Source of the DNA: Candidatus Shapirobacteria bacterium
GTDB lineage: Bacteria > Patescibacteriota > Microgenomatia > UM-FILTER-40-11
Length of the DNA stretch: 64,000 bases
Assembly: GCA_020059745.1 (NCBI GenBank)
Contig: JAGVBK010000004.1
Location: 26,932-90,931 of the forward strand
Reading direction: 5' to 3'
The notes beneath the pieces are model-generated. The model was not told the origin of the DNA. It made no database searches and saw only the letters and a program-made list of their open reading frames with translations. The position numbers and the translations under genes are program-made. Below, piece after piece: positions 4,877 to 52,148 of this stretch. How positions within the stretch are numbered: the stretch's first letter is position 1; each line of letters begins with the position of its first letter.

Positions 4877-5740
4877 ATGAACAATTCTATAACCATTAAA
4901 GATGCTTCGGAAAAATTTTCCGAATTTTTAAAAAACCAGAAAAGAGCTTCAGCTACAATATTAGCATACACCAATGATATTGCGCAGTTGGCGAAGTTTC
5001 TTGAAGGAAAAGGAGTAGCGGCAACCACAGCCGTTAATCAGCCATTGCTTGAAGAATTTAAAGAAAACCTAAATTCAAGAGGCTATACTGCCAAATCCGT
5101 TTCCAGAAAAATAAACTCCATAAAAACTTTTTTCCGCTTTCTTAAAACAGAAGGCTATATTGAAACTGACCCGGCTGTTTCCGTTGCCCACCCAAAATAC
5201 GAGGTAAAACCGCCAAGAGTCCTTTCAAAGCTAGAATACCGAGCTTTAAGAGATGCTTGCCGCGGAGATGCCAGAATTTCTGCCATTGTTGAGTTGATGC
5301 TTCAAACCGGAATCAGGATCGGTGAAGTGGCAAACCTGAATTTAGAAGACTACAAAGGAGACGAAATTGTAATTAAGCCCTACGAATCACACGAAGGCAG
5401 AACTATTCCTCTAAACAAAGCTGCCAAAGAAGCTTTAGAAAAATATTTAAAAGAAAGGCCGGAAGTCAAAGAAAATGCTATTTTTGTAACTAAAACTGGC
5501 AGACCTTTTCTTATAAGAAACATTCGCTCTTCTATTGAGCGCTATTTTGAGCTAGCGGGAATCAAGGACGCAAAAGTAAATGATTTAAGGCACACCTGGG
5601 TTTACCATCATTTAGCAGCCGGTACCCCCCTCATTACCATCTCCAAATTGGCAGGACACAAAAGACTTTCCACTACAGAAAAATACCTGAAACTTCTTGG
5701 CGAGAAAAAAGAAGGCGCCGTTAAACTTGAAGAACTATAA
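4877..5740 (+). CDS. xerD: tyrosine site-specific recombinase (XerC/XerD-like integrase)
   Basis: 287 aa. N-terminal SAM-like domain. C-terminal catalytic motifs R...HxxR...Y (LRHTWVYHHLAAGTPLITISKLAGHKRLSTTEKYL). Confidence 0.85.
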   Translation: MNNSITIKDASEKFSEFLKNQKRASATILAYTNDIAQLAKFLEGKGVAATTAVNQPLLEEFKENLNSRGYTAKSVSRKINSIKTFFRFLKTEGYIETDPAVSVAHPKYEVKPPRVLSKLEYRALRDACRGDARISAIVELMLQTGIRIGEVANLNLEDYKGDEIVIKPYESHEGRTIPLNKAAKEALEKYLKERPEVKENAIFVTKTGRPFLIRNIRSSIERYFELAGIKDAKVNDLRHTWVYHHLAAGTPLITISKLAGHKRLSTTEKYLKLLGEKKEGAVKLEEL

Positions 5741-5754
5741 ATTTTTCATCTTAT

Positions 5755-5795
5755 CAAATTAGACCAATTTGTCTAATTAGACTAATTCGTTCTTC
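5755..5795. repeat. repeat cluster R1 made of AATTAGAC/GTCTAATT units (AATTAGAC-CAATTT-GTCTAATT-AGACTAATT)
   Basis: Seen directly 15 bp downstream of the xer stop. Contains a perfect 8-bp inverted pair plus a third unit. Confidence 0.6.
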
Positions 5796-6329
5796 TTTAA
5801 GAATTCTCGTCTCTTTCTAAACAAATTCTCTCTAAATCCCCCCTCCTCTACAAACTTTTTCTCTTGAGCTCTAAGTAATTGATCCAAAAGAAAGGTTTCT
5901 TTATAAATCAGGCAAATCATTAGGTTTGCAAACCCTTCGGGCTTTTCCAAACTCAAATTTGCCCAATTAGACAAATTAGCCAAATTAGTCTCTTTATCAG
6001 TTGTCTCTCGGAAAGCTCTAATCTTCAAAACCCTCTACTATCATTCTTTGACCAAAGGGAAAGTTTTCTTCTCCTTAGAAAGTCCTTAAAATCTTCGAGA
6101 AGTTCACCATAACTGGCCCTCGCCACCCCGGTAAGTTTAATGTTCCCTCAAAACTTTTTTCAAGAGAACCTTCAACAATATTCTGTTTACCTGATCTTGA
6201 GGCCTGGATCATTTGTTCAACCGTCCTTTTTTCAGAATATTCAGGGAGAAATTTCTGACAGAAGAGGATTGTTCCGTCGTCAATCGTTACCGCCAGCCTA
6301 TAAACAAGTAAGCTTTCACACCCTCCCAT
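5777..6329 (-). pseudogene. disrupted four-helix-bundle protein gene (23S rRNA-IVS protein family) in two ORF pieces
   Basis: ORF 6075-6329 (..LVYRLAVTIDDGTILFCQKFLPEYSEKRTVEQMIQASRSGKQNIVEGS) matches the N-terminal half of this family. ORF 5777-6028 (..LLDQLLRAQEKKFVEEGGFRENLFRKRRE) matches the C-terminal half. They are separated by a stop/gap, and repeat R2 is embedded in the second piece. Confidence 0.4.
5958..5990. repeat. repeat cluster R2 (CAATTAGACAAATTAGCCAAATTAGTCTC)
   Basis: Same AATTAG(A/C/T)C units as R1 and R3. Confidence 0.55.
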
Positions 6330-6334
6330 GTTTC

Positions 6335-6369
6335 CAAATTAGACAAATTTTTCCAATTAGTCAAATTAG
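6335..6369. repeat. repeat cluster R3 (AAATTAGACAAATTTTTCCAATTAGTCAAATTAGTGG) abutting the tRNA fragment 3' end
   Basis: Shares TTTGTCTAATT(T)GG (minus reading) with R1 and R2. Lies immediately 3' of tRNA fragment C. Confidence 0.55.
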
Positions 6370-6410
6370 TGGACCAGCTTGGATTCGAACCAAGGACTTC
6401 CAACTTATAA
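6370..6410 (-). pseudogene. tRNA 3' fragment C: anticodon-loop core TTATAA + GTTGG + variable + T arm (CTTGG-TTCGAAT-CCAAG) + acceptor CTGGTCC-A
   Basis: No matching 5' half with a CCAAC anticodon stem is present. The acceptor is complementary to the GGACCAG of fragment X. Confidence 0.5.
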
Positions 6411-6444
6411 TTTGCTTCGCAAAATATACTCTTTGGACCTTGTG

Positions 6445-6485
6445 TGGACGCGCCTGGAATCGGACCAGGGACCTGTTGTTTATAA
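6445..6485 (-). pseudogene. tRNA 3' fragment B: TTATAA + ACAAC + AGGTC + T arm (CCTGG-TCCGATT-CCAGG) + acceptor CGCGTCC-A
   Basis: No complementary 5' acceptor strand (GGACGCG) exists upstream. The ACAAC would pair with GTTGT of fragment X. Confidence 0.5.
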
Positions 6486-6514
6486 CGCACAAAGCGCGGT
6501 ATACCGAATTTGGA

Positions 6515-6589
6515 TGGTGGAGCCAGATGGACTCGAACCATCGACGGCTACTTTATAAGAGTAGTGCTCTACCACTGAGCTATGGCTCC
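6515..6589 (-). tRNA. tRNA-Ile (anticodon UAU), CCA encoded
   Basis: Perfect cloverleaf on the reverse complement: GGAGCCA-TA-GCTC-AGTGGTA-GAGC-A-CTACT-CTTATAA-AGTAG-CCGTC-GATGG-TTCGAGT-CCATC-TGGCTCC-A-CCA. Flanked by the inverted hexamers CGAATT / AATTCG. Confidence 0.85.
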
Positions 6590-6596
6590 AAATTCG

Positions 6597-6634
6597 TTAT
6601 AAGACAACCGCTCTAACCACTGAGTTACTGGTCC
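6597..6634 (-). pseudogene. tRNA 5' half fragment X: acceptor GGACCAG, U8A9, D arm, anticodon 5' stem GTTGT and loop CTTATAA; no contiguous 3' half
   Basis: Reverse complement of 6591-6640 reads AAGTAGGGACCAGTAACTCAGTGGTTAGAGCGGTTGTCTTATAACGAATT. After the loop the sequence runs straight into tRNA-Ile. Confidence 0.5.
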
Positions 6635-6639
6635 CTACT

Positions 6640-7197
6640 TTAGCCCAAAAAGCTTGTATACTTACTTTCCCTATTATACCAAAACCCAGCCTTGTTTTGG
6701 GTTCTGAAACGGTCAGGGAAAATCGGTTTTAGCCAAGCAGAGTGGTGCTCTTTAGGTATTTGGTGAAAAGATAAAGATAAAGAGAGCTCTTCAAAACTGT
6801 CTGCCGGCATAACGGCAACTGACGGAACAGCTCTTTTTTCCTCTTCGTCTAAAAACTGCTGGTAGGTCGGGTCAACCGCAAAGACCTTATCCTTATAAGG
6901 CAGCCTCAAAAAAACATGTTCTTTGTAAAAGCCATTAGGATAAAAAAGCCTGGTATAAACCGGAGACAAAAGAGGAAAAGCTCTTCTTAGCTTTTGCCTC
7001 ATCGCCCATACTATGGAAAAACATTGCTCTGAATCAGGGCCGACTGGTTTTTGCAGTGTTTGAGAAACAAGAAAAAAAGCTTCTGAAGCCGCCTTGTTGA
7101 TGCTTGCACCAATTCCCGATTCATCGCTTTGGTTTACTCTTTCAAGCATTAGAAAGATAATATTATAACCTGGCTCTTTTGGCAATTTCCGCTTCAA
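6640..7197 (-). CDS. hypothetical protein, last gene of the VirB4-like operon
   Basis: 185 aa. Start overlaps the upstream ATPase gene by 35 nt. No recognisable motifs. Confidence 0.5.
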   Translation of the reverse strand: MKRKLPKEPGYNIIFLMLERVNQSDESGIGASINKAASEAFFLVSQTLQKPVGPDSEQCFSIVWAMRQKLRRAFPLLSPVYTRLFYPNGFYKEHVFLRLPYKDKVFAVDPTYQQFLDEEEKRAVPSVAVMPADSFEELSLSLSFHQIPKEHHSAWLKPIFPDRFRTQNKAGFWYNRESKYTSFLG

Positions 7198-9502
7198 CCA
7201 AAGACCGTTCTTTACCGTACTTAAGCCGGGAAAGCTCTTTTATCTTTTCTGAAAGCTCAGGGCTCATTTCTTTCCAAATTGGTGGCATGTCGTCTTTCAT
7301 GCTAACTGAAAAAGAAGGTACAGGCTCGTTGTTAACAATGGTTTTTATGTAAGCATTAAAAGCCTCAATATTTAAAAGATCGCTTTCTGAAAATGTGGGC
7401 GAAAACTCATGCTGTAAATACTGGGCATCAGTTACTCCCACCCTAAAGGCAATTTTTGTTCCTACATTTCCGAAAACTGCATTTTTCACCTCTTCGTCCA
7501 TCTGGCCAATAAATTGGTTGGCCACACAAAGGCCAAGATGAAATTTCCTCGCTTCAGAAAGGATCTGGGCAAAATCAGGAGTGGCAAAGTTCTGAAACTC
7601 GTCCACATAAAGATAAAAGTCTTTTCTCTGAGCTTCAGGAATATTGGAACGGCTCATTGCAGCCATTAAAATTTTAGGAACAAGGATCAAGCCTAAAAAG
7701 CTCGAGTTTTCCTCGCCGATCTGGCCTTTGGCAAGATTAATGATAAGGATTTTCCCTTCATCCATTACCTTTCTAAAATCAAAAGCGCTTTTTGACTGGC
7801 CGATTATATTCCTTATCATTTTATTGGTGACAAAACGGCCGAATTTAGAAACAATGTAATCAAGGGTTTCTGATTTATGAAAATCAGAGGTTTGGGCAAT
7901 CTGGTCTGTCCAATACCTTCTTACCACCGGATCCTGAACCTTAGGAAGAAGTTCCTGAACATATCTTGGGTCAGTTAAACAGCGAACCACCTCAATAAAA
8001 GTGCTTCCCGGCTCAGACATTACCGTTAACATGGCGTTTCTAATTGCATGCTCAAACCTAGGACCGACAATTCCGGTCTTATAAGGGTCAAAGAGCTTAT
8101 ACATGAGGTTAATAATTGCCGTGGTAATGAAATGCTTTTGGTCCTCTGTCTCTGCCTCAAGCAGATTAAGGCCAATCGGCCGGTCAATATCAGCCGGAGA
8201 AAAGTAAATCACATCATCCGCCCTTTCCGGCGGAATAAGCTGCATTACCTGCTCAAAAGTATCATGAGGATCAATAAAACAAAAGCCCTTTCCGGCCTTA
8301 AGATCTTGGTGCATCATTTTTACCAAAAGCTGTGATTTGCCTGTGCCGGTAGCGCCAATAATATAAATATGGCGCATCCGGTCAGAGTCACCAATATGAA
8401 CCGGTTGCTCAGTACCCCTGAAAACGCTTTTGCCTAAATATATTCCCTGTTTGGGAATTTGCTGGGGAGCCGGCGCTCTTTTGGCATTAAGCCAAAAAAT
8501 ATGAGGTGTTTCCACAGTTTTATTGGGAAAGTGAAAAATAGTAGCCAGCTCTTCACTGCTTAAAACAATTTTGTTGCGGTTAAGATAAAAAAGAGGCTGG
8601 TAGCGGTAAATAAAATCAGTCATAAAAAGCTTGGGCAGTCTCACTTTATAGCTCTTAAAGCCATTTTGATCACCTGAAAGCTGTTCAAAAGCTGCTTTTA
8701 TATTTTGCAGATGGGCTTTGGCGGAAGCTAAGTCGGTAGAAGAGACAACAATTCTTATGTTTGTCTCAAAGTTGGGCTTTGAGCACTTGTTTTCGATTGC
8801 TTCCATTTGTTTGGGGTCAACTTTATAGCTTGCTTTTTCAGGATCGCTCTCGTCTTTTTTCACTTTTGAGATATATTTTCTGCCCGCAGAACGGTTGGTG
8901 TTTCCTGCCGGAGAAATAATCATCTGAATGGCTGCCCCTTCCCCTTCTTTCATTTTGGCCAAAGCCGAGGTAATTGAAGCAAGCGGATCAGTCGGCAAGT
9001 CTTTGTAGACTTTTATCGGCATATAGGAAGAAGACCTGAATTGAAGGTCGGTATAAGTTACTTTTCCTTTTTCAGAAAAAATGTTGTACTCGTTCACCTC
9101 TTTTATGTCTGCTCCGGGGTAGGTGCCGTGAATTTGTTTTTCCACCATATCCCTTAAATTTTTAGGCATGGAAACATAAAAGCGAATATCTTCAGGTAAA
9201 CCCACAATTTCAAAAGAAATGTGGTCCTGAAGTCTTAAAAAAGAAAGCTTCCCGCCTTTGTGGAGTGAAGAAAAAGAAGAAATCATCTGCTCGGCCGCGT
9301 CAATTTTTACTTCGTTGTCCCGGGGGACCGCTACTTGAAGAAGTACATACTCAAGCGATTTCTCTTCCCTTTTTCTGTTCCTGTACCAAATCACTAAAAC
9401 CTGGCCTAAAACCAAACCAAAAAGAGCTGTTAAAGTAGCTGCTAAAGCAGCGTTAATAAACAATCTTAAGTTGCCAATCAAGTCAATTAAATTAGAATTC
9501 AT
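7163..9502 (-). CDS. membrane-anchored VirB4/TraC/TrbE-like conjugative ATPase (AAA_10/DUF87, FtsK-HerA superfamily)
   Basis: 779 aa. N-terminal TM helix, Walker A IIGATGTGKS at ~residue 395, then FIDPHDTF...IGLNLL, Walker B LYVDEFQNF, then ..GTKIAFRV. This motif order resembles VirB4/TrbE more than VirD4. Family call is by recall, not by search. Confidence 0.6.
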   Translation of the reverse strand: MNSNLIDLIGNLRLFINAALAATLTALFGLVLGQVLVIWYRNRKREEKSLEYVLLQVAVPRDNEVKIDAAEQMISSFSSLHKGGKLSFLRLQDHISFEIVGLPEDIRFYVSMPKNLRDMVEKQIHGTYPGADIKEVNEYNIFSEKGKVTYTDLQFRSSSYMPIKVYKDLPTDPLASITSALAKMKEGEGAAIQMIISPAGNTNRSAGRKYISKVKKDESDPEKASYKVDPKQMEAIENKCSKPNFETNIRIVVSSTDLASAKAHLQNIKAAFEQLSGDQNGFKSYKVRLPKLFMTDFIYRYQPLFYLNRNKIVLSSEELATIFHFPNKTVETPHIFWLNAKRAPAPQQIPKQGIYLGKSVFRGTEQPVHIGDSDRMRHIYIIGATGTGKSQLLVKMMHQDLKAGKGFCFIDPHDTFEQVMQLIPPERADDVIYFSPADIDRPIGLNLLEAETEDQKHFITTAIINLMYKLFDPYKTGIVGPRFEHAIRNAMLTVMSEPGSTFIEVVRCLTDPRYVQELLPKVQDPVVRRYWTDQIAQTSDFHKSETLDYIVSKFGRFVTNKMIRNIIGQSKSAFDFRKVMDEGKILIINLAKGQIGEENSSFLGLILVPKILMAAMSRSNIPEAQRKDFYLYVDEFQNFATPDFAQILSEARKFHLGLCVANQFIGQMDEEVKNAVFGNVGTKIAFRVGVTDAQYLQHEFSPTFSESDLLNIEAFNAYIKTIVNNEPVPSFSVSMKDDMPPIWKEMSPELSEKIKELSRLKYGKERSLVEAEIAKRARL

Positions 9503-31121: not shown

Positions 31122-31652
31122 CTATTTTAACTCAAAATCAGCCAATTTGGTATAGACCGGGCCTTGGGCCGTTAGCACACTTTGGTAAAGGGATAAAACC
31201 CTTACCTCAAAATCAAGCTTAAGATCTAAAAAGGGTGGTTTGTTTACCCCCTTTTTAAAGCGATATAAAGTGACATGAGGCGTAAATTCAATCTTCTCCC
31301 TAAGTAAAAACCCGTTTTTTAAAAAACTATCAACCAATTTTTTATAAAGTCTAAAAAGCTTTTCTTTTTCACCGCCAACTTCAACCCAAACACCTTCAGG
31401 CTTGCTTTTCTTGCCAAAAAGACTGACTTTCCCAAGACTTAGCTTTATTTTTCCGGAAATTAAGTTTTCTTTAATAATTTTTTTAATCTTTTTAAGGTCA
31501 AAAGCATCAATTTCACCTATGAAAAGAAGGGTTAGGTGCAGGTTTTGTTTCTCAACCAACTTGGCACTTGCCCCTTTTGAGATTTCTTCAGAAAGAAAGT
31601 GAAGCCTCTCTTTAAGTTCCTCCGGTAAAAAGATAGCCACAAAAACTCTCAT
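31122..31652 (-). CDS. thpR: RNA 2',3'-cyclic phosphodiesterase (2H family, LigT/ThpR)
   Basis: Two HxT/S motifs (HLTLLF, HVTLYR). Confidence 0.7.
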   Translation of the reverse strand: MRVFVAIFLPEELKERLHFLSEEISKGASAKLVEKQNLHLTLLFIGEIDAFDLKKIKKIIKENLISGKIKLSLGKVSLFGKKSKPEGVWVEVGGEKEKLFRLYKKLVDSFLKNGFLLREKIEFTPHVTLYRFKKGVNKPPFLDLKLDFEVRVLSLYQSVLTAQGPVYTKLADFELK

Positions 31653-44252: not shown

Positions 44253-45059
44253 CTATTTTTCTTTTTTGAGAGATGAAAAAATACCAGTTTTTTTTATTGC
44301 CATATCTAAGCTTTTCTCAAGTTCGCTTTCAATTTCTTGCTCGGGAGTTGGGGCCGGTAGCTCACCCTTAGGCGGAGGCAGACGATCCTGGACCTTCTCC
44401 TCAATCAGGTTTAAAAGATCATCAGTATATGTGTCTTCGTAAAGCTCCGGCCTGAAGGGAATAGTTAAGCTGTCAACCAAACGAAGAGCAGTATCAAGTT
44501 CTTTTAGGGTAATTTCCTCTGACTTGGGAAGATTAAGTTCTTTTTGTTTTTTTATCTCCCAATCAAAACGCATTTGGTTAAGAAAAATTACGTTATCTTC
44601 AGCCTTAAGGATTCCCAGATGCTCTCTTGTTCTTATTACAAATTTGACAACACCAACCTTTTCCGAACGCTTAAGCGCTTCCCTTAAAAGGGCATATGAT
44701 TTTCTGCTCCCCTCCTCAGGTTCCAAAAAATAAGGCTTTTCCAAATACTTGGGATTAATTTCCTCTTCCTTGACAAAGTTCATCACCTCAATAGCTCTTG
44801 TCCGGTAAACATTGGCCCTTTCTAAGTCGTCATCCGTAACAGTCACATATTTTCCTTCTTTATACTCATACCCTCTTACAATATCGCTAAAAGCAACCTC
44901 CTCCCCTGTTTTGGCGCAAACGCGCACATATTGAATCGGACATAAATCTTTTTTTCTTAAAAAGAAAAATCTAAGTTTTTTTTGGTCCGTGGCATTATAA
45001 ATCTTAACCGGTATTCTCACCAAGCCAAAATCAATAAAACCGATTTTGATAGGCTTCAT
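44253..45059 (-). CDS. ku: Ku protein (NHEJ DNA end-binding)
   Basis: Ku core (IGFIDFGLVRIPVKIY) with an acidic C-terminal tail. Start taken as the Met at 45059. Confidence 0.8.
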   Translation of the reverse strand: MKPIKIGFIDFGLVRIPVKIYNATDQKKLRFFFLRKKDLCPIQYVRVCAKTGEEVAFSDIVRGYEYKEGKYVTVTDDDLERANVYRTRAIEVMNFVKEEEINPKYLEKPYFLEPEEGSRKSYALLREALKRSEKVGVVKFVIRTREHLGILKAEDNVIFLNQMRFDWEIKKQKELNLPKSEEITLKELDTALRLVDSLTIPFRPELYEDTYTDDLLNLIEEKVQDRLPPPKGELPAPTPEQEIESELEKSLDMAIKKTGIFSSLKKEK

Positions 45060-45165
45060 AAAAAAAACCTTATCTTTTAGGCTTAAACCCCAAGTCAAAA
45101 CCTGGTAATAAGAAGGAAAGATTTTACTATTGCATTTAAAAGAAAGTTAAGGTTAAATCTCAATT

Positions 45166-51671: not shown

Positions 51672-52148
51672 CTAAAGATTAAAACGGTCAAGTTCAGGCC
51701 AATAAACATCACCTGCCACTCCTAAAAGAGAGGCGCATTTTTTCAGGCAATCACTCGCGGCCGATTTAAGATCATCGGCAATACTGATAAGCTCACCGTT
51801 TCGGGTGTATTTTATGTCAGAACCGCCATACTGCGCCTTAACAATGGTATGGTCTTTTATCCTCACGGTTAGCTCTCCCCTAACCCAGACCTGTTTTTTC
51901 CCTACCTCCTGATCTAAAATCCGAAAATCCCAATCCCAACCAAAAGCCTGATTTAAAAGATTGACTACATACCCGATTTCCACATAGTCAAGCTCTTTGC
52001 CGCCCGGACCTGGTCTTTTTTTTATAAACTGCTTGGGTGTCTTTTGGGTAATAAAACTGCGCTGGGCCTGGTTTAGATTTTGCGGCAACTGGTTAAGTTT
52101 AAGGTCTTTTTCATTATTCTCTTCCATACGGTAAATATGAATTTTCAT
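51672..52148 (-). CDS. hypothetical protein; weak Rad52/22-like single-strand annealing protein resemblance
   Basis: 158 aa; FGWDWDFRI..VWVRGELTV..YGGSD. Recall-level similarity only. Confidence 0.3.
   Translation of the reverse strand: MKIHIYRMEENNEKDLKLNQLPQNLNQAQRSFITQKTPKQFIKKRPGPGGKELDYVEIGYVVNLLNQAFGWDWDFRILDQEVGKKQVWVRGELTVRIKDHTIVKAQYGGSDIKYTRNGELISIADDLKSAASDCLKKCASLLGVAGDVYWPELDRFNL

Follow-up and report, generated by a model that had tools for sequence, protein, structure and literature searches.

Nested tRNA-Ile(UAU) Genes on a Microgenomates Chromosome: Probable Traces of a Mini-Element That Replaces the tRNA Gene It Interrupts

Introduction

tRNA genes are classical integration sites, and the crossover often falls in the anticodon loop. 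Single-strand transposition of the IS200/IS605 type, together with its miniature derivatives (PATEs), places DNA next to a fixed tetranucleotide, and the derivatives have no coding capacity. To our knowledge, protein-based tRNA splicing has no example in bacteria. Group I introns have been found in the anticodon loops of bacterial tRNAs, Patescibacteria included (PMC13011429).

Here we describe a locus in which the anticodon loop of a tRNA gene holds a second tRNA gene with the same anticodon. Three tRNA-Ile(UAU) genes are stacked like a “Russian doll” on a Microgenomates (CPR/Patescibacteria) chromosome: the anticodon loop of an older gene holds the innermost one, and the older gene in turn lies inside a third. 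The same nesting occurs in dozens of related genomes, and a full-text literature search for tRNA-in-tRNA nests turned up no earlier description. By “the window” we mean the whole 64-kb stretch of DNA analysed around this locus.

Results

Anatomy of the Nest

On the minus strand, positions 6634-6370 carry a complete tRNA-Ile(UAU), preceded by a single 5' tRNA half and followed by two differing 3' halves (Table 1). The original prediction had named these pieces and all of them are present; ARAGORN, proposed there as a check, was run and calls the complete gene at 6589-6515. The view that three different tRNA-Ile(UAU) genes contributed the pieces, and that these were joined by serial insertion into the anticodon loop with a replacement tRNA brought by each insertion, is likewise upheld. 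The replacement was, however, thought to be a part of a tRNA, whereas the inserts carry a whole tRNA gene in 110-170 bp and have no body.

Table 1. Positions of the nested tRNA pieces and of neighbouring genes in the window.
Feature	Position	Strand or orientation	Remarks
Xer-like tyrosine recombinase gene	4877-5740	convergent with the tRNA	287 aa; 630 nt from the nest
3' half C	6370..6410	minus	TTATAA, GTTGG, T arm, CTGGTCC, A; 3' exon of the outermost, oldest tRNA C; nhmmer E=5.3e-6
Element B trailer	6411..6444	minus	leader-complement remnant, G-TATA-T (6429-6424), hairpin TTTGCGAAGCAAA (6423-6411)
3' half B	6445..6485	minus	TTATAA, ACAAC, T arm, CGCGTCC, A; 3' exon of interrupted tRNA B; nhmmer E=6.6e-6
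Inner-element trailer	6486..6514	minus	in this order: TCCAAATTCG, G, TATA (6503-6500), C, hairpin CGCGCTTTGTGCG
Innermost complete tRNA-Ile(UAU)	6515..6589	minus	CCA encoded; ARAGORN; Rfam RF00005, 73.5 bits, E=3.5e-14
Inner-element leader	6590..6596	minus	CGAATTT; pairs with trailer 6505-6511; helix continues over GGA of the tRNA
5' half A	6597..6634	minus	acceptor GGACCAG, D arm, anticodon-stem strand GTTGT, loop CTTATAA; nhmmer E=1.6e-6
Candidate promoter	6673..6681	minus	TGGTATAAT, extended -10-like box upstream of the outermost 5' half; read from sequence
DUF8128/HerA-type ATPase gene (“VirB4-like”)	7163-9502		present in >597 CPR genomes
LigT-like 2H phosphoesterase or 2'-5' RNA ligase family gene	31122-31652		within the window

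A tRNA-Ile(UAU) profile, searched over 1.2 Mb, found halves A, B and C as separate partial matches, and their E-values (Table 1) mean that the halves are not chance matches. The anticodon-stem strand of A is complementary to that of B at 5/5 positions, and its acceptor strand pairs at 7/7 positions with C and at only 5/7 with B; half C resembles the uninterrupted tRNA of locus L019. The innermost tRNA is presumably the working gene. It is flanked by an inverted repeat, noticed earlier by its CGAATT/AATTCG ends, which proves to be longer than they suggest, covering 15 nt with 93% complementarity (TATAACGAATTTGGA / TCCAAATTCGGTATA). Within the inner trailer, TCCAAATTCG is complementary to the leader CGAATTT, the next G makes a purine-purine mismatch, and the following TATA is able to pair with the anticodon plus A37. 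The trailer of element B is ~74% identical to its counterpart in the relative L204, and the same hairpin is found in L170 and L055.

The TGGTATAAT box is the sole promoter candidate for the whole nest and may drive its transcription. Equivalent boxes (TGnTATAAT or TAAAAT) stand upstream of the outermost 5' half in relatives, and no internal promoter was found within the nests of the window or of the relatives. A generic sigma-70 and terminator scan gave nothing useful at the nest; TGGTATAAT was not called by it because the box has no -35 partner.

Origin of the Single 5' Half

The pieces had been interpreted as att scars of integration and excision, but the arrangement is nested: L204, which has 77% nucleotide identity to the window in the ATPase gene, retains the full doll 5'C-5'B-tRNA-3'B-3'C, with perfect acceptor and anticodon stems in both outer layers. 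Half A of the window equals positions 1-15 of L204 5'C followed by positions 16-38 of L204 5'B, an exact match position by position, and the 3'B and 3'C of the window are identical to those of L204, where the 5'B that matches 3'B is present. From the full doll of L204 we conclude that the lone 5' half of the window is a chimera, created when a deletion that ran from the D arm of 5'C to that of 5'B fused the two into half A. An A10.C25 mismatch arises in the D stem of the chimera. Because of the deletion that created A, the leader of element B is gone, and 3'B and 3'C are left without proper partners, so that neither B nor C is able to form a normal tRNA in the window. The earlier remark that B and C have no contiguous partner is true of the window, and the chimera supplies the explanation. 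L018 is the mirror case, with two 5' halves and one chimeric 3' half.

Genomic Context

The whole window is housekeeping chromosomal DNA. Among 48/64 non-overlapping ORFs of >=90 aa, scanned from across the 64-kb window, there was no further mobile-element gene such as a transposase or second recombinase, no TnpA (Y1 HUH) and no homologue of a splicing endonuclease. The supposed VirB4-like operon abutting the nest is represented by a core ATPase gene of the DUF8128/HerA type, separated from the nest by a 185-aa orphan ORF. The position of tRNA-Ile(UAU) downstream of this ATPase gene is conserved synteny, and the order ATPase -> tRNA-Ile(UAU) <- recombinase is kept from Microgenomates to Saccharibacteria. 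In the window, L018 and L184, the gene that adjoins the nest belongs to the “23S rRNA IVS protein” family of four-helix bundles.

The tyrosine recombinase gene had been placed correctly at 0.6 kb from the nest, but it does not testify to a mobile element, being Xer-like and conserved at this position in about 45/80 related loci, nest or no nest. Its product is 38-82% identical across CPR classes at the same position, and this identity follows that of the core ATPase. Adjacency of the recombinase was rejected as a predictor of nests, with no enrichment seen: it accompanies 3-4 of the 8 GTDB nests against 45/80 loci overall, and ~12/43 metagenome nests. Some nests have no recombinase at all in a locus sequence that extends up to ~7-10 kb a side. 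The best family matches of the enzyme include a XerA / integron-integrase model, at 55 bits against a cut-off of 265. A 16-nt 3' remnant of an older tRNA lies between the tRNA and the recombinase gene of L035.

Recurrence and Turnover

Nests or fragments occupy the syntenic locus in 8/40 related GTDB species, and 43 of the 46 metagenome matches of an unbiased DNA pattern are nests (about 43 contigs). In every tRNA-Ile nest, host and insert are both Ile(UAU). A single nest of another kind came to light, in which a tRNA(CAU) interrupts a tRNA(CAU) and the trailer belongs to the same family. Relatives with similar nests, whose halves often match perfectly, realise in part the shared arrangement that the original prediction had set against itself. 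Four close relatives (the window, L204, L166 and L184) are each in a different state. In favour of mobility and horizontal sharing, the same cassette sits within different outer tRNAs in L179 and L187, the nest order in L010 is the reverse of that in the window, and an identical 430-nt nest is shared by L160 and L161 with differing flanks.

Outside nests, neither the trailer motif CGATATATCG nor solo elements occurred in 1.7 Mb of CPR DNA. No free or circular element and no empty-site allele were found, and exact-protein look-ups matched the source contig alone. Viral contigs, scanned for the nest pattern and for two trailer motifs, gave no CPR-type nest; both trailer-motif scans returned chance matches only, with no tRNA-Ile pieces nearby. 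The nest-pattern scan of these contigs picked up chance matches and an unrelated giant-virus tRNA family.

Architecture of the Elements

The intervening element measures ~110-170 bp and consists of one complete promoterless tRNA-Ile(UAU) with a leader and a trailer, with no element body; the non-tRNA part of the insert is only 35-100 nt, leaders taking 7-27 nt. A common plan runs across the elements: leader/trailer helix, internal TATA, hairpin and terminal TATA. In a covariation analysis of 15 elements, 104/105 positions of the leader:trailer helix are paired, and so are 59/60 positions of the hairpin, with 2-4 pair types per column and none of the shuffles as good (0/2000). The insertion point is the TATA of the anticodon loop (C-T-TATA-A, palindromic), at or next to position 37/38. 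The 5' exon ends with ...CTTATA and the 3' exon opens with A38 after the terminal TATA, the TA repeats making 35/36 equally possible; junction repeats comprise 0-6 nt of (T)TATA(A), with a TA repeat length of 0, 2 or 4 nt. The inner tRNA is co-oriented with the outer one in every nest.

Folding is predicted to give concentric cloverleaves, with z=-4.85 in L204 and z=-3.68 in the window. At the junction, as predicted and as drawn by hand, a 4-bp TATA:TATA helix stands between a 1x1 purine mismatch and a hairpin-containing loop, which would put the 5' junction in a near-continuous helix and the 3' junction after the 13-50 nt of that loop. A bulge-helix-bulge motif was sought in the hand drawing and in 22 folded junction constructs and rejected, paired 3-nt bulges being absent. 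A hammerhead core in the CTGATATTTC...GAAT trailer family was rejected as well: the CUGAUGA/GAAA core is absent, and no ribozyme came out of an Rfam scan by E-value. When the nest was scanned with Rfam for a group I or II catalytic core, under gathering thresholds as well as by E-value, only tRNA was returned; the same tool detects a true group I intron in L187. That intron interrupts a tRNA-fMet beside two nests.

State of the Outer Halves

Perfect 7+5 bp complementarity is kept in 21/29 outer layers, second layers included; the other 8/29 are chimeric or mismatched, and several have no 3' halves at all. Stem mismatches amount to 8/42 and 2/31 in outer halves versus 1/37 and 0/37 in inner tRNAs, the innermost tRNAs having intact stems in 36-37/37 nests. 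In L159, L174, L183 and L187, outer halves have hairpins inserted in their D or T loops. The outer anticodon stems of L184 and the window differ by fully compensatory changes (TTTCT/AGAAA vs GTTGT/ACAAC).

The outer halves B + C of the window and L204 are identical at 82/82 positions, compared with 65-92% for the bona fide tRNAs of the two genomes. Conservation of the outer halves was therefore rejected as a sign of function, since a level above that of genuine tRNAs points to horizontal sharing and not to vertical constraint. We consider the outer copies dispensable and presumably inactive.

Discussion

We think it rather probable that the nests are the work of a self-targeting DNA mini-element, which replaces the gene it interrupts and leaves decaying outer halves behind. 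The data show the nested order, the chimera, the common covarying architecture, its repeated occurrence across many genomes and the changes of state among relatives. Insertion at the DNA level is inferred. A small non-coding element with a promoterless tRNA-Ile(UAU) would enter the anticodon loop of a resident tRNA-Ile(UAU) gene and split it, a later element would repeat the insertion inside the inserted tRNA, and only the innermost gene would be needed. We propose that insertions of this kind are tolerated since the tRNA they bring is the one they interrupt, lies in the same direction and is transcribed from the promoter of the host gene. Transcription would proceed from the single upstream promoter, and the inner tRNA would be freed by RNase P and 3'-processing enzymes. 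The outer halves would represent interrupted predecessors that decay mainly through recombination between repeated halves. Candidates for mobilisation are a host recombinase acting in trans at the TATA core or a hairpin-guided single-strand transposition.

Several features count against the mini-element. The 48/64 scanned ORFs gave no further mobile-element gene, no free, circular or solo element and no empty-site allele turned up, and in 1.7 Mb of CPR DNA the trailer motif was confined to nests. The variable junction repeats (0, 2 or 4 nt of TA) are untidy for a transposase with a fixed target-site duplication, and the sole recombinase is a conserved Xer-like gene, unenriched near nests. The 21/29 perfect outer layers and the extreme conservation of outer halves would also fit spliced functional tRNAs. 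The canonical tRNA intron position is likewise 37/38, and intron-containing pre-tRNAs show the same kind of pairing as that of the anticodon with the internal TATA.

The main rival is a genuine tRNA intron at 37/38 that houses a tRNA, its exons being ligated by a putative bacterial pathway and each layer being functional; one transcript, cut at both TATA junctions, would yield two or three tRNA-Ile(UAU). We regard this as rather unlikely. Protein-dependent (non-group I/II) tRNA splicing in CPR bacteria, with splice sites marked by structured ends made of a TATA:TATA helix, a purine-purine mismatch and a hairpin, and with an intron that matures into a tRNA, is in our opinion unlikely. In its favour, the insertion point is at or beside 37/38, an internal TATA next to a conserved purine-purine mismatch can pair with the anticodon plus A37, and the strong covariation of the leader:trailer helix and of the hairpin is what an RNA structure would be expected to show. 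The perfect acceptor and anticodon stems of most outer layers, the compensatory anticodon-stem changes between L184 and the outer tRNA of the window, and the predicted folding of whole nests as concentric cloverleaves are also consistent with splicing, and the LigT-like gene of the window, which belongs to a widespread family, is a weak hint in the same direction. However, the junctions have no bulge-helix-bulge motif, no ribozyme is matched, and a group I or II intron would not fit into inserts of this size. An intron has no cause to bring a tRNA whose anticodon is that of its host, yet the two agree in the CAU nest as well as in every Ile nest. The outer copies are often broken or miss halves and have more stem defects than the inner ones, and in the window neither B nor C makes a normal tRNA.

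Other explanations start from the neighbouring recombinase or from the assembly. Large integrative elements (conjugative or phage-like), which would have used this enzyme for repeated integration and excision and left att-site fragments, are suggested by its gene lying 630 nt away and convergent with the tRNA, and by the older-tRNA remnant in L035. This is very improbable: site-specific excision would take out the extra halves and not leave them, each insert is a whole unit of 110-170 bp that has conserved structured ends and lacks a body, the recombinase is vertically conserved and Xer-like, the ATPase is a core gene, and some nests have no recombinase within a locus sequence of up to ~7-10 kb a side. 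With core genes as neighbours and housekeeping DNA throughout the window, the large integrative element was rejected. A more specific version of DNA-level insertion, which names the enzyme, is an integron-like platform, where the Xer-like recombinase would capture folded single-stranded tRNA cassettes at the TATA of the anticodon loop and the tRNA promoter would serve as the cassette promoter. The gene order conserved from Microgenomates to Saccharibacteria, the promoterless cassettes and the XerA / integron-integrase model among the best family matches of the enzyme agree with it; by analogy with attC, a circularised cassette would form one long imperfect hairpin with the crossover in the stem, its leader + TATA + hairpin strand pairing with hairpin strand + TATA + trailer. 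Still, nests are no commoner beside the recombinase, the GTTRRRY core is absent, the anticodon-stem arms that would be the binding sites differ in sequence between targets, and a protein of 287 aa, to judge by its length and weak partial matches, is unlikely to hold the extra domain of integron integrases, so we consider such a platform quite unlikely. An artefact or local accident has a practically negligible probability. The window comes from a metagenome assembly (JGI 3300007351), and repeated tRNA segments can confuse assemblers, but mis-assembly and a one-off local tRNA duplication are both contradicted by the recurrence of the architecture in >40 independent assemblies, including 0.68-1.2 Mb contigs (L010, L176, L178). 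The halves, moreover, differ in sequence from the inner tRNA and are therefore not duplicates, and another record of this contig has the identical locus.

If insertion of a DNA element is the true explanation, the nests would represent a minimal selfish element, the sole cargo of which is a copy of the essential gene it destroys, and a tRNA gene-replacement drive that spreads horizontally among the streamlined CPR genomes. If the introns are genuine, they would reveal bacterial tRNA splicing of a kind thought to be limited to archaea and eukaryotes. In either case, the nests give a living example of mobile insertion at 37/38 that creates intron-like and split-like tRNA genes, which bears on the old debate over the origin of tRNA introns and tRNA halves. 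They also account for orphan tRNA fragments missed or mislabelled by annotation pipelines, and form a compact natural record of successive invasions that is readable by population metagenomics.

Comparison with Known Systems

With tRNA-targeting integrative elements (genomic islands, ICEs and prophages, as well as the archaeal pNOB8/SSV-type elements) the nests share the tRNA target, the crossover in the anticodon loop, the maintenance of tRNA function by the incoming DNA and the displaced tRNA fragments that remain as footprints. Unlike these elements, they have no body and no integrase of their own, and bring a whole tRNA instead of a 3' segment. The shared core is just TATA(A), with no long direct repeat of the tRNA 3' part, and the inserts of ~110-170 bp are placed one inside another and not side by side. 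Integron cassettes are similarly small, and they are promoterless units that depend on a resident promoter, as the inserts of the nests may be. In both, the first part of the cassette can pair with a stretch close to its other end, the end folds as an imperfect hairpin whose stem would contain the crossover, and a tyrosine recombinase gene is often adjacent. In contrast to integrons, the nests have no attC/attI motifs, the R''/R' core (RYYYAAC ... GTTRRRY) being absent at the junctions, which are TATA; the cargo is a tRNA, nests replace arrays because each target lies within the cargo of the preceding cassette, and the recombinase is Xer-like, its involvement being putative.

The archaeal and eukaryal tRNA introns at 37/38, including the mobile ones and those housing C/D box sRNAs, resemble the nests in position, in the pairing between anticodon and insert, in the preserved fold of the host tRNA, in the embedded functional RNA and in the evidence of transposition between tRNA genes. 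The differences are the bacterial host, an embedded RNA that is a tRNA with the same anticodon, a depth of up to three layers and outer copies that are frequently broken. Of the features of a bulge-helix-bulge intron, the nests have the anticodon-loop insert at 37/38 and lack the two 3-nt bulges around a 4-bp helix. Group I introns interrupt tRNA anticodon loops in the same phylum, whereas the nests have an embedded tRNA in place of a group I core.

Bacterial 23S rRNA IVS, which are removed by RNase III with no religation, are also short structured inserts in a loop of a stable RNA, with a stem formed by their ends; unlike rRNA, a tRNA host is unworkable in two pieces, and here the insert brings the replacement gene. 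The apparent resemblance to IS200/IS605 and PATEs would consist in insertion next to a fixed tetranucleotide, the lack of coding capacity, a subterminal hairpin, a TATA “guide” at its 5' foot and a TATA 3' of it that is similar to a cleavage site, while the nests differ in having the hairpin at the right end only and a tRNA as cargo. Finally, in contrast to the split or permuted tRNAs of Nanoarchaeum, Caldivirga and Cyanidioschyzon, the halves are collinear and contiguous with the insert, and the complementary leader and trailer belong to the inner tRNA rather than to the halves.

Structure of the tRNA-Ile(UAU) locus

Read on the minus strand (window 6100-6900), the locus shows that units carrying a tRNA were inserted one inside another, each in the anticodon loop of a tRNA gene of its own kind, and that recombination later eroded the result. 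All the tRNA pieces described in the original prediction were found by sequence reading and profile matches (see the table). The complete inner tRNA is the sole ARAGORN and Rfam tRNA call at the locus, no complete tRNA being called from the 3' halves B or C. The 5' half A as well as B and C give independent partial matches (E ~1e-6 each) to a profile built from 41 tRNA-Ile(UAU) genes. The anticodon-stem strand of A is complementary to that of B (5/5) and its acceptor strand to that of C (7/7), but neither 3' half fits A in both stems.

Coordinates of the features of the window and of the related locus L187
Feature	Position	Strand	Description
5' half A	6634-6597	minus	GGACCAG acceptor strand, D arm, GTTGT, loop CTTATAA
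Leader	6596-6590	minus	CGAATTT
Inner tRNA-Ile(UAU)	6589-6515	minus	complete gene
Trailer 1	6514-6486	minus	TCCAAATTCG-G-TATA-C-hairpin
3' half B	6485-6445	minus	TTATAA-ACAAC...CGCGTCC-A
Trailer 2	6444-6411	minus	34-nt spacer, hairpin TTTGCGAAGCAAA at its end
3' half C	6410-6370	minus	TTATAA-GTTGG...CTGGTCC-A
DUF8128/HerA-type ATPase gene	7163-9502		>597 relatives in CPR genomes
185-aa ORF	6640-7197	minus	between ATPase gene and tRNA promoter
23S rRNA intervening-sequence protein family gene	5777-6329	minus	four-helix bundle with suffix domain
AATTAGACAAATT-type repeats	5747-5790, 5946-5989, 6327-6370		~44 nt
LigT-like 2H phosphoesterase / 2'-5' RNA ligase family gene	31122-31652	minus	
Ku gene	44253-45098	minus	
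Rad52/22-family gene	51672-52148	minus	
L187 tRNA(CAU) nest	2221-2419	plus	tRNA(CAU) gene in another tRNA(CAU) gene
L187 group I intron	1196-1421	plus	in anticodon loop of tRNA-fMet-like gene; Rfam 62.9 bits

Nests in related genomes and the origin of half A

The comparison with relatives that had been proposed revealed similar nests, i.e., complete tRNAs lying inside the anticodon loop of another tRNA gene. Of 40 related species, 8 (L009, L010, L013, L017, L018, L035, L037, and L055) have additional tRNA-Ile halves or fragments beside the tRNA, and in L010 a leader-tRNA-trailer unit interrupts an outer tRNA that is otherwise perfectly intact. A scan of metagenome contigs for Ile(UAU) 5' halves with a new D arm 10-30 nt further on gave 46 matching contigs, 43 of them being nests (~30 distinct).

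The locus L204, rather closely related to the window (77% nucleotide identity in the ATPase gene and 82% amino acid identity in the recombinase), holds the full series 5'C - 5'B - full tRNA - 3'B - 3'C. Both of its outer layers pair perfectly in the acceptor and anticodon stems (GGACCAG/CTGGTCC and CCAAC/GTTGG in the outermost layer C; GGACGCG/CGCGTCC and GTTGT/ACAAC in the middle layer B), and its 3'B and 3'C are identical to B and C of the window. Half A matches 5'C over positions 1-15 and 5'B over positions 16-38 with zero discrepancies. Judging by this exact join, A is a deletion chimera produced by recombination between the D arms of 5'C and 5'B, which is why its acceptor fits C and its anticodon stem fits B. 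The lack of a contiguous partner for B and C, pointed out in the original prediction, is thus explained. The mirror case is represented by L018, with two 5' halves and a single chimeric 3' half.

Genomic setting

The window belongs to the chromosome of a Microgenomates-group CPR/Patescibacteria bacterium with relatives among Levy-, Gottesman-, Woese-, and Daviesbacteria. Of the 64 non-overlapping ORFs with 90 aa or more, 48 were scanned; their functions lie in housekeeping, regulation, or repair (e.g., LeuRS, NrdDG, PBPs, transketolase, GAPDH, PGK, TIM, pyrophosphatase, and Ku), and no transposase and no second recombinase were found among them.

A “VirB4-like” operon and a tyrosine recombinase gene beside the nest had been taken as signs of a mobile element. 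The former represents a DUF8128/HerA-type ATPase gene, 3' of which tRNA-Ile(UAU) lies on the same strand in 40 of the 60 related loci examined. The latter is Xer-like (best matches XerC, XerD, and XerA, all under the equivalog cut-offs), and its ortholog comes next, convergently, in about 45 of 80 loci. This ortholog shows 38-65% identity in species representatives, the most distant being Dojka- and Saccharibacteria; among metagenome relatives that are closer, the identity rises to as much as 82%. Given these conserved positions, both flanking genes of the nest are conserved core synteny and do not testify to a mobile element.

Directly 3' of the outermost 3' half lies the 23S rRNA intervening-sequence protein family gene, broken into two ORFs of 84 and 83 aa and enclosed by repeats. 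Since the gene and repeats also follow the nests in L018 and L184 and are absent after the L204 nest, this looks like a separate small insertion. The 185-aa ORF, which has no family match and no homologue among 80 related loci, represents either an insertion specific to this lineage or a spurious reading frame; in L204 the nest is directly 3' of the ATPase gene without it. The window also encodes a LigT-like protein of a widespread family historically noted for in vitro joining of tRNA halves. Other products are Ku and a protein of the Rad52/22 family; repair through end joining or annealing may bear on the capture of DNA at breaks.

Anatomy of the inserted element

The element plan was drawn from ~35 junction pairs. 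The 5' exon ends with C-T-T-A-T-A and is followed by a nucleotide X, a leader of 7-27 nt, and the complete tRNA. The trailer starts as the complement of the leader, often continuing over the first 2-5 nt of the inner tRNA; then come one nucleotide R (usually purine-purine mismatched with X), an internal TATA able to base-pair with U34-A37 in the 5' exon, a small hairpin whose sequence varies, one nucleotide, and the terminal (T)TATA preceding A38 of the 3' exon. In 15 elements, which are related to each other in sequence and whose register was set by hand, pairs form at 104 of the 105 leader:trailer positions and at 59 of the 60 hairpin positions, with 2-4 pair types per column and 0 of 2000 partner shuffles as good. 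The insert sequence families (GCGAAAAT.../...ATTTTCGATATATCG, TCTTGCTCA.../...GAGCAAGATGTATTCTTGCGAA, CAGCAAAGAG.../...CTGATATTTC, and GCGAAGCTTGTAAAC...) each occur with differing inner and outer tRNAs. At minimum energy, both the junction constructs and the whole nests fold into concentric cloverleaves, and the palindrome CGATATATCG is confined to nests within 1.7 Mb of CPR DNA. No promoter-like box was found within any nest; a TGnTATAAT or TAAAAT box lies upstream of the outermost 5' half, where a generic promoter scan gave no call.

The L187 tRNA(CAU) nest has the leader GCGCAAAAC and the trailer GTTTTGTGATATATCG-hairpin-C-TATA, and this trailer (GATATATCG-hairpin-TATA) represents the element family of the Ile nests. 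Its junctions differ (5' CATA, 3' TATA), so the terminal TATA seems to be a part of the element rather than a target duplication. The same genome has a group I intron in tRNA-fMet near two nests. The 5'/3' tRNA half pairs spaced by 180-230 nt in L023, L035, L053, L073, and L173 are probably group I introns, as already reported for Patescibacteria.

The IMG/VR loci L100, L101, L115, L122, L125, L127, L128, L133, L134, L138, L143, L147, L154, L156, and L157, several of them from giant-virus MAGs, carry a tRNA 5' half with the loop CTTATGA (anticodon UAU) and, ~6-30 nt on, a tRNA-Lys(UUU) gene containing a short intron. Their single 3' half can pair with either 5' half, so two tRNAs appear to share it, which is reminiscent of tri-split tRNAs.

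Decay and turnover of the outer layers

Among the outer layers with both halves, 21 of 29 are fully complementary in the acceptor and anticodon stems and 8 are chimeric or mismatched; several nests are devoid of 3' halves. Stem defects are found in 1/37 D stems and 0/37 T stems of inner tRNAs versus 8/42 and 2/31, respectively, of outer halves, whose T loops are also more deviant. Some outer halves contain hairpin-forming insertions of 18-66 nt in D or T loops (5' half D loop in L159 and L174; D stem in L183; outermost 3' half T loop in L182, L187, and L195; 5' fragment in L009), which may represent either more small palindromic elements or extra inserts resembling introns. In L176, a 20-nt “empty” insert ~60 nt downstream of the inner tRNA (trailer ...CGATATATCGCGGACGC-TATAA-GCGAAGCTTACAAACTTTGT-TTATAA) sits in the loop of an outer tRNA with still perfect stems and looks like an emptied element, its leader and trailer fused by deletion of the tRNA between direct repeats.

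The window, L204, L166, and L184 have a common outermost GGACC(A/T)G 5' piece with different content in each, the same cassette occurs in different outer tRNAs (L179 and L187), and the outer tRNA of L010 resembles the inner tRNA of the window, and conversely. An identical ~430-nt nest with its downstream segment is present in L160 and L203 versus L161 between flanks unrelated on both sides; therefore, the whole nest was moved or exchanged between contexts. B and C are identical in the window and L204 (82/82), compared with 65% identity for tRNA-Trp, 85-92% for two tRNA-Met, 87% for the inner tRNA-Ile, and ~74% for the B trailer. Judging by these alignments, the B/C identity surpasses what selection maintains on the real tRNAs of these genomes, which suggests that cassettes come from a pool shared by horizontal transfer.

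Discussion

We suppose that insertion probably occurs in DNA. A tRNA-bearing unit would enter the anticodon loop of a resident tRNA gene and be tolerated as a replacement for the gene that it interrupts, having the same anticodon, orientation, and host promoter; only the innermost tRNA would be required, and the outer halves would be young relics. This is supported by the self-in-self rule, strict in two tRNA families (Ile(UAU) and CAU), by the dispensable, decaying outer copies, and by the horizontal sharing of cassettes. Being a near-palindrome of 17 bp with TTATAA at its centre, the tRNA-Ile(UAU) anticodon arm is attractive as a target in DNA. The element, circular or single-stranded, may fold via its internal and terminal TATA and inverted arms into a long imperfect hairpin with the crossover point inside the stem, a topology reminiscent of integron attC sites and of hairpin-guided single-strand transposition. 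One candidate enzyme is the Xer-like recombinase next to the nest; nests are not enriched beside it among the related loci and metagenome nests.

The main rival holds that the inserts are genuine introns removed by RNA splicing. It agrees with the insert position 37/38, the pairing of the anticodon with the insert, the strong covariation in the elements, and the large number of outer tRNAs that are intact and whose differences are compensatory. However, the junction folds have no bulge-helix-bulge (BHB) motif, no ribozyme match was obtained, and we know of no bacterial machinery for such tRNA splicing; moreover, RNA-level splicing leaves the identity of the inner and outer anticodons unexplained, and some outer copies, including those in the window, are broken. 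We therefore consider it rather unlikely. From the original prediction, serial anticodon-loop insertion with replacement is retained, but integration of large integrase-borne elements is effectively excluded by the core nature of the flanking genes and the absence of an element body; an assembly artefact is effectively excluded as well.

A full-text literature search yielded no account of one tRNA gene nested inside another, and a 2026 survey of tRNA introns in Patescibacteria (PMC13011429) describes no such nests; they are widespread in CPR bacteria and, so far as this search reached, undescribed. The nests differ in defining features from the known systems: they have no BHB, although they look similar to archaeal-style introns housing an RNA, no group I/II intron core, and no attC or attI motifs of integron cassettes, and their halves are collinear, unlike split or permuted tRNAs. 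The resemblance to IS200/IS605-type ends is a lead only. Integrative elements targeting tRNA genes have a similar type of target, but the nest has no element integrase, element body, or long repeat. By analogy, the locus works like such an element cut down to its att site and a full replacement gene.
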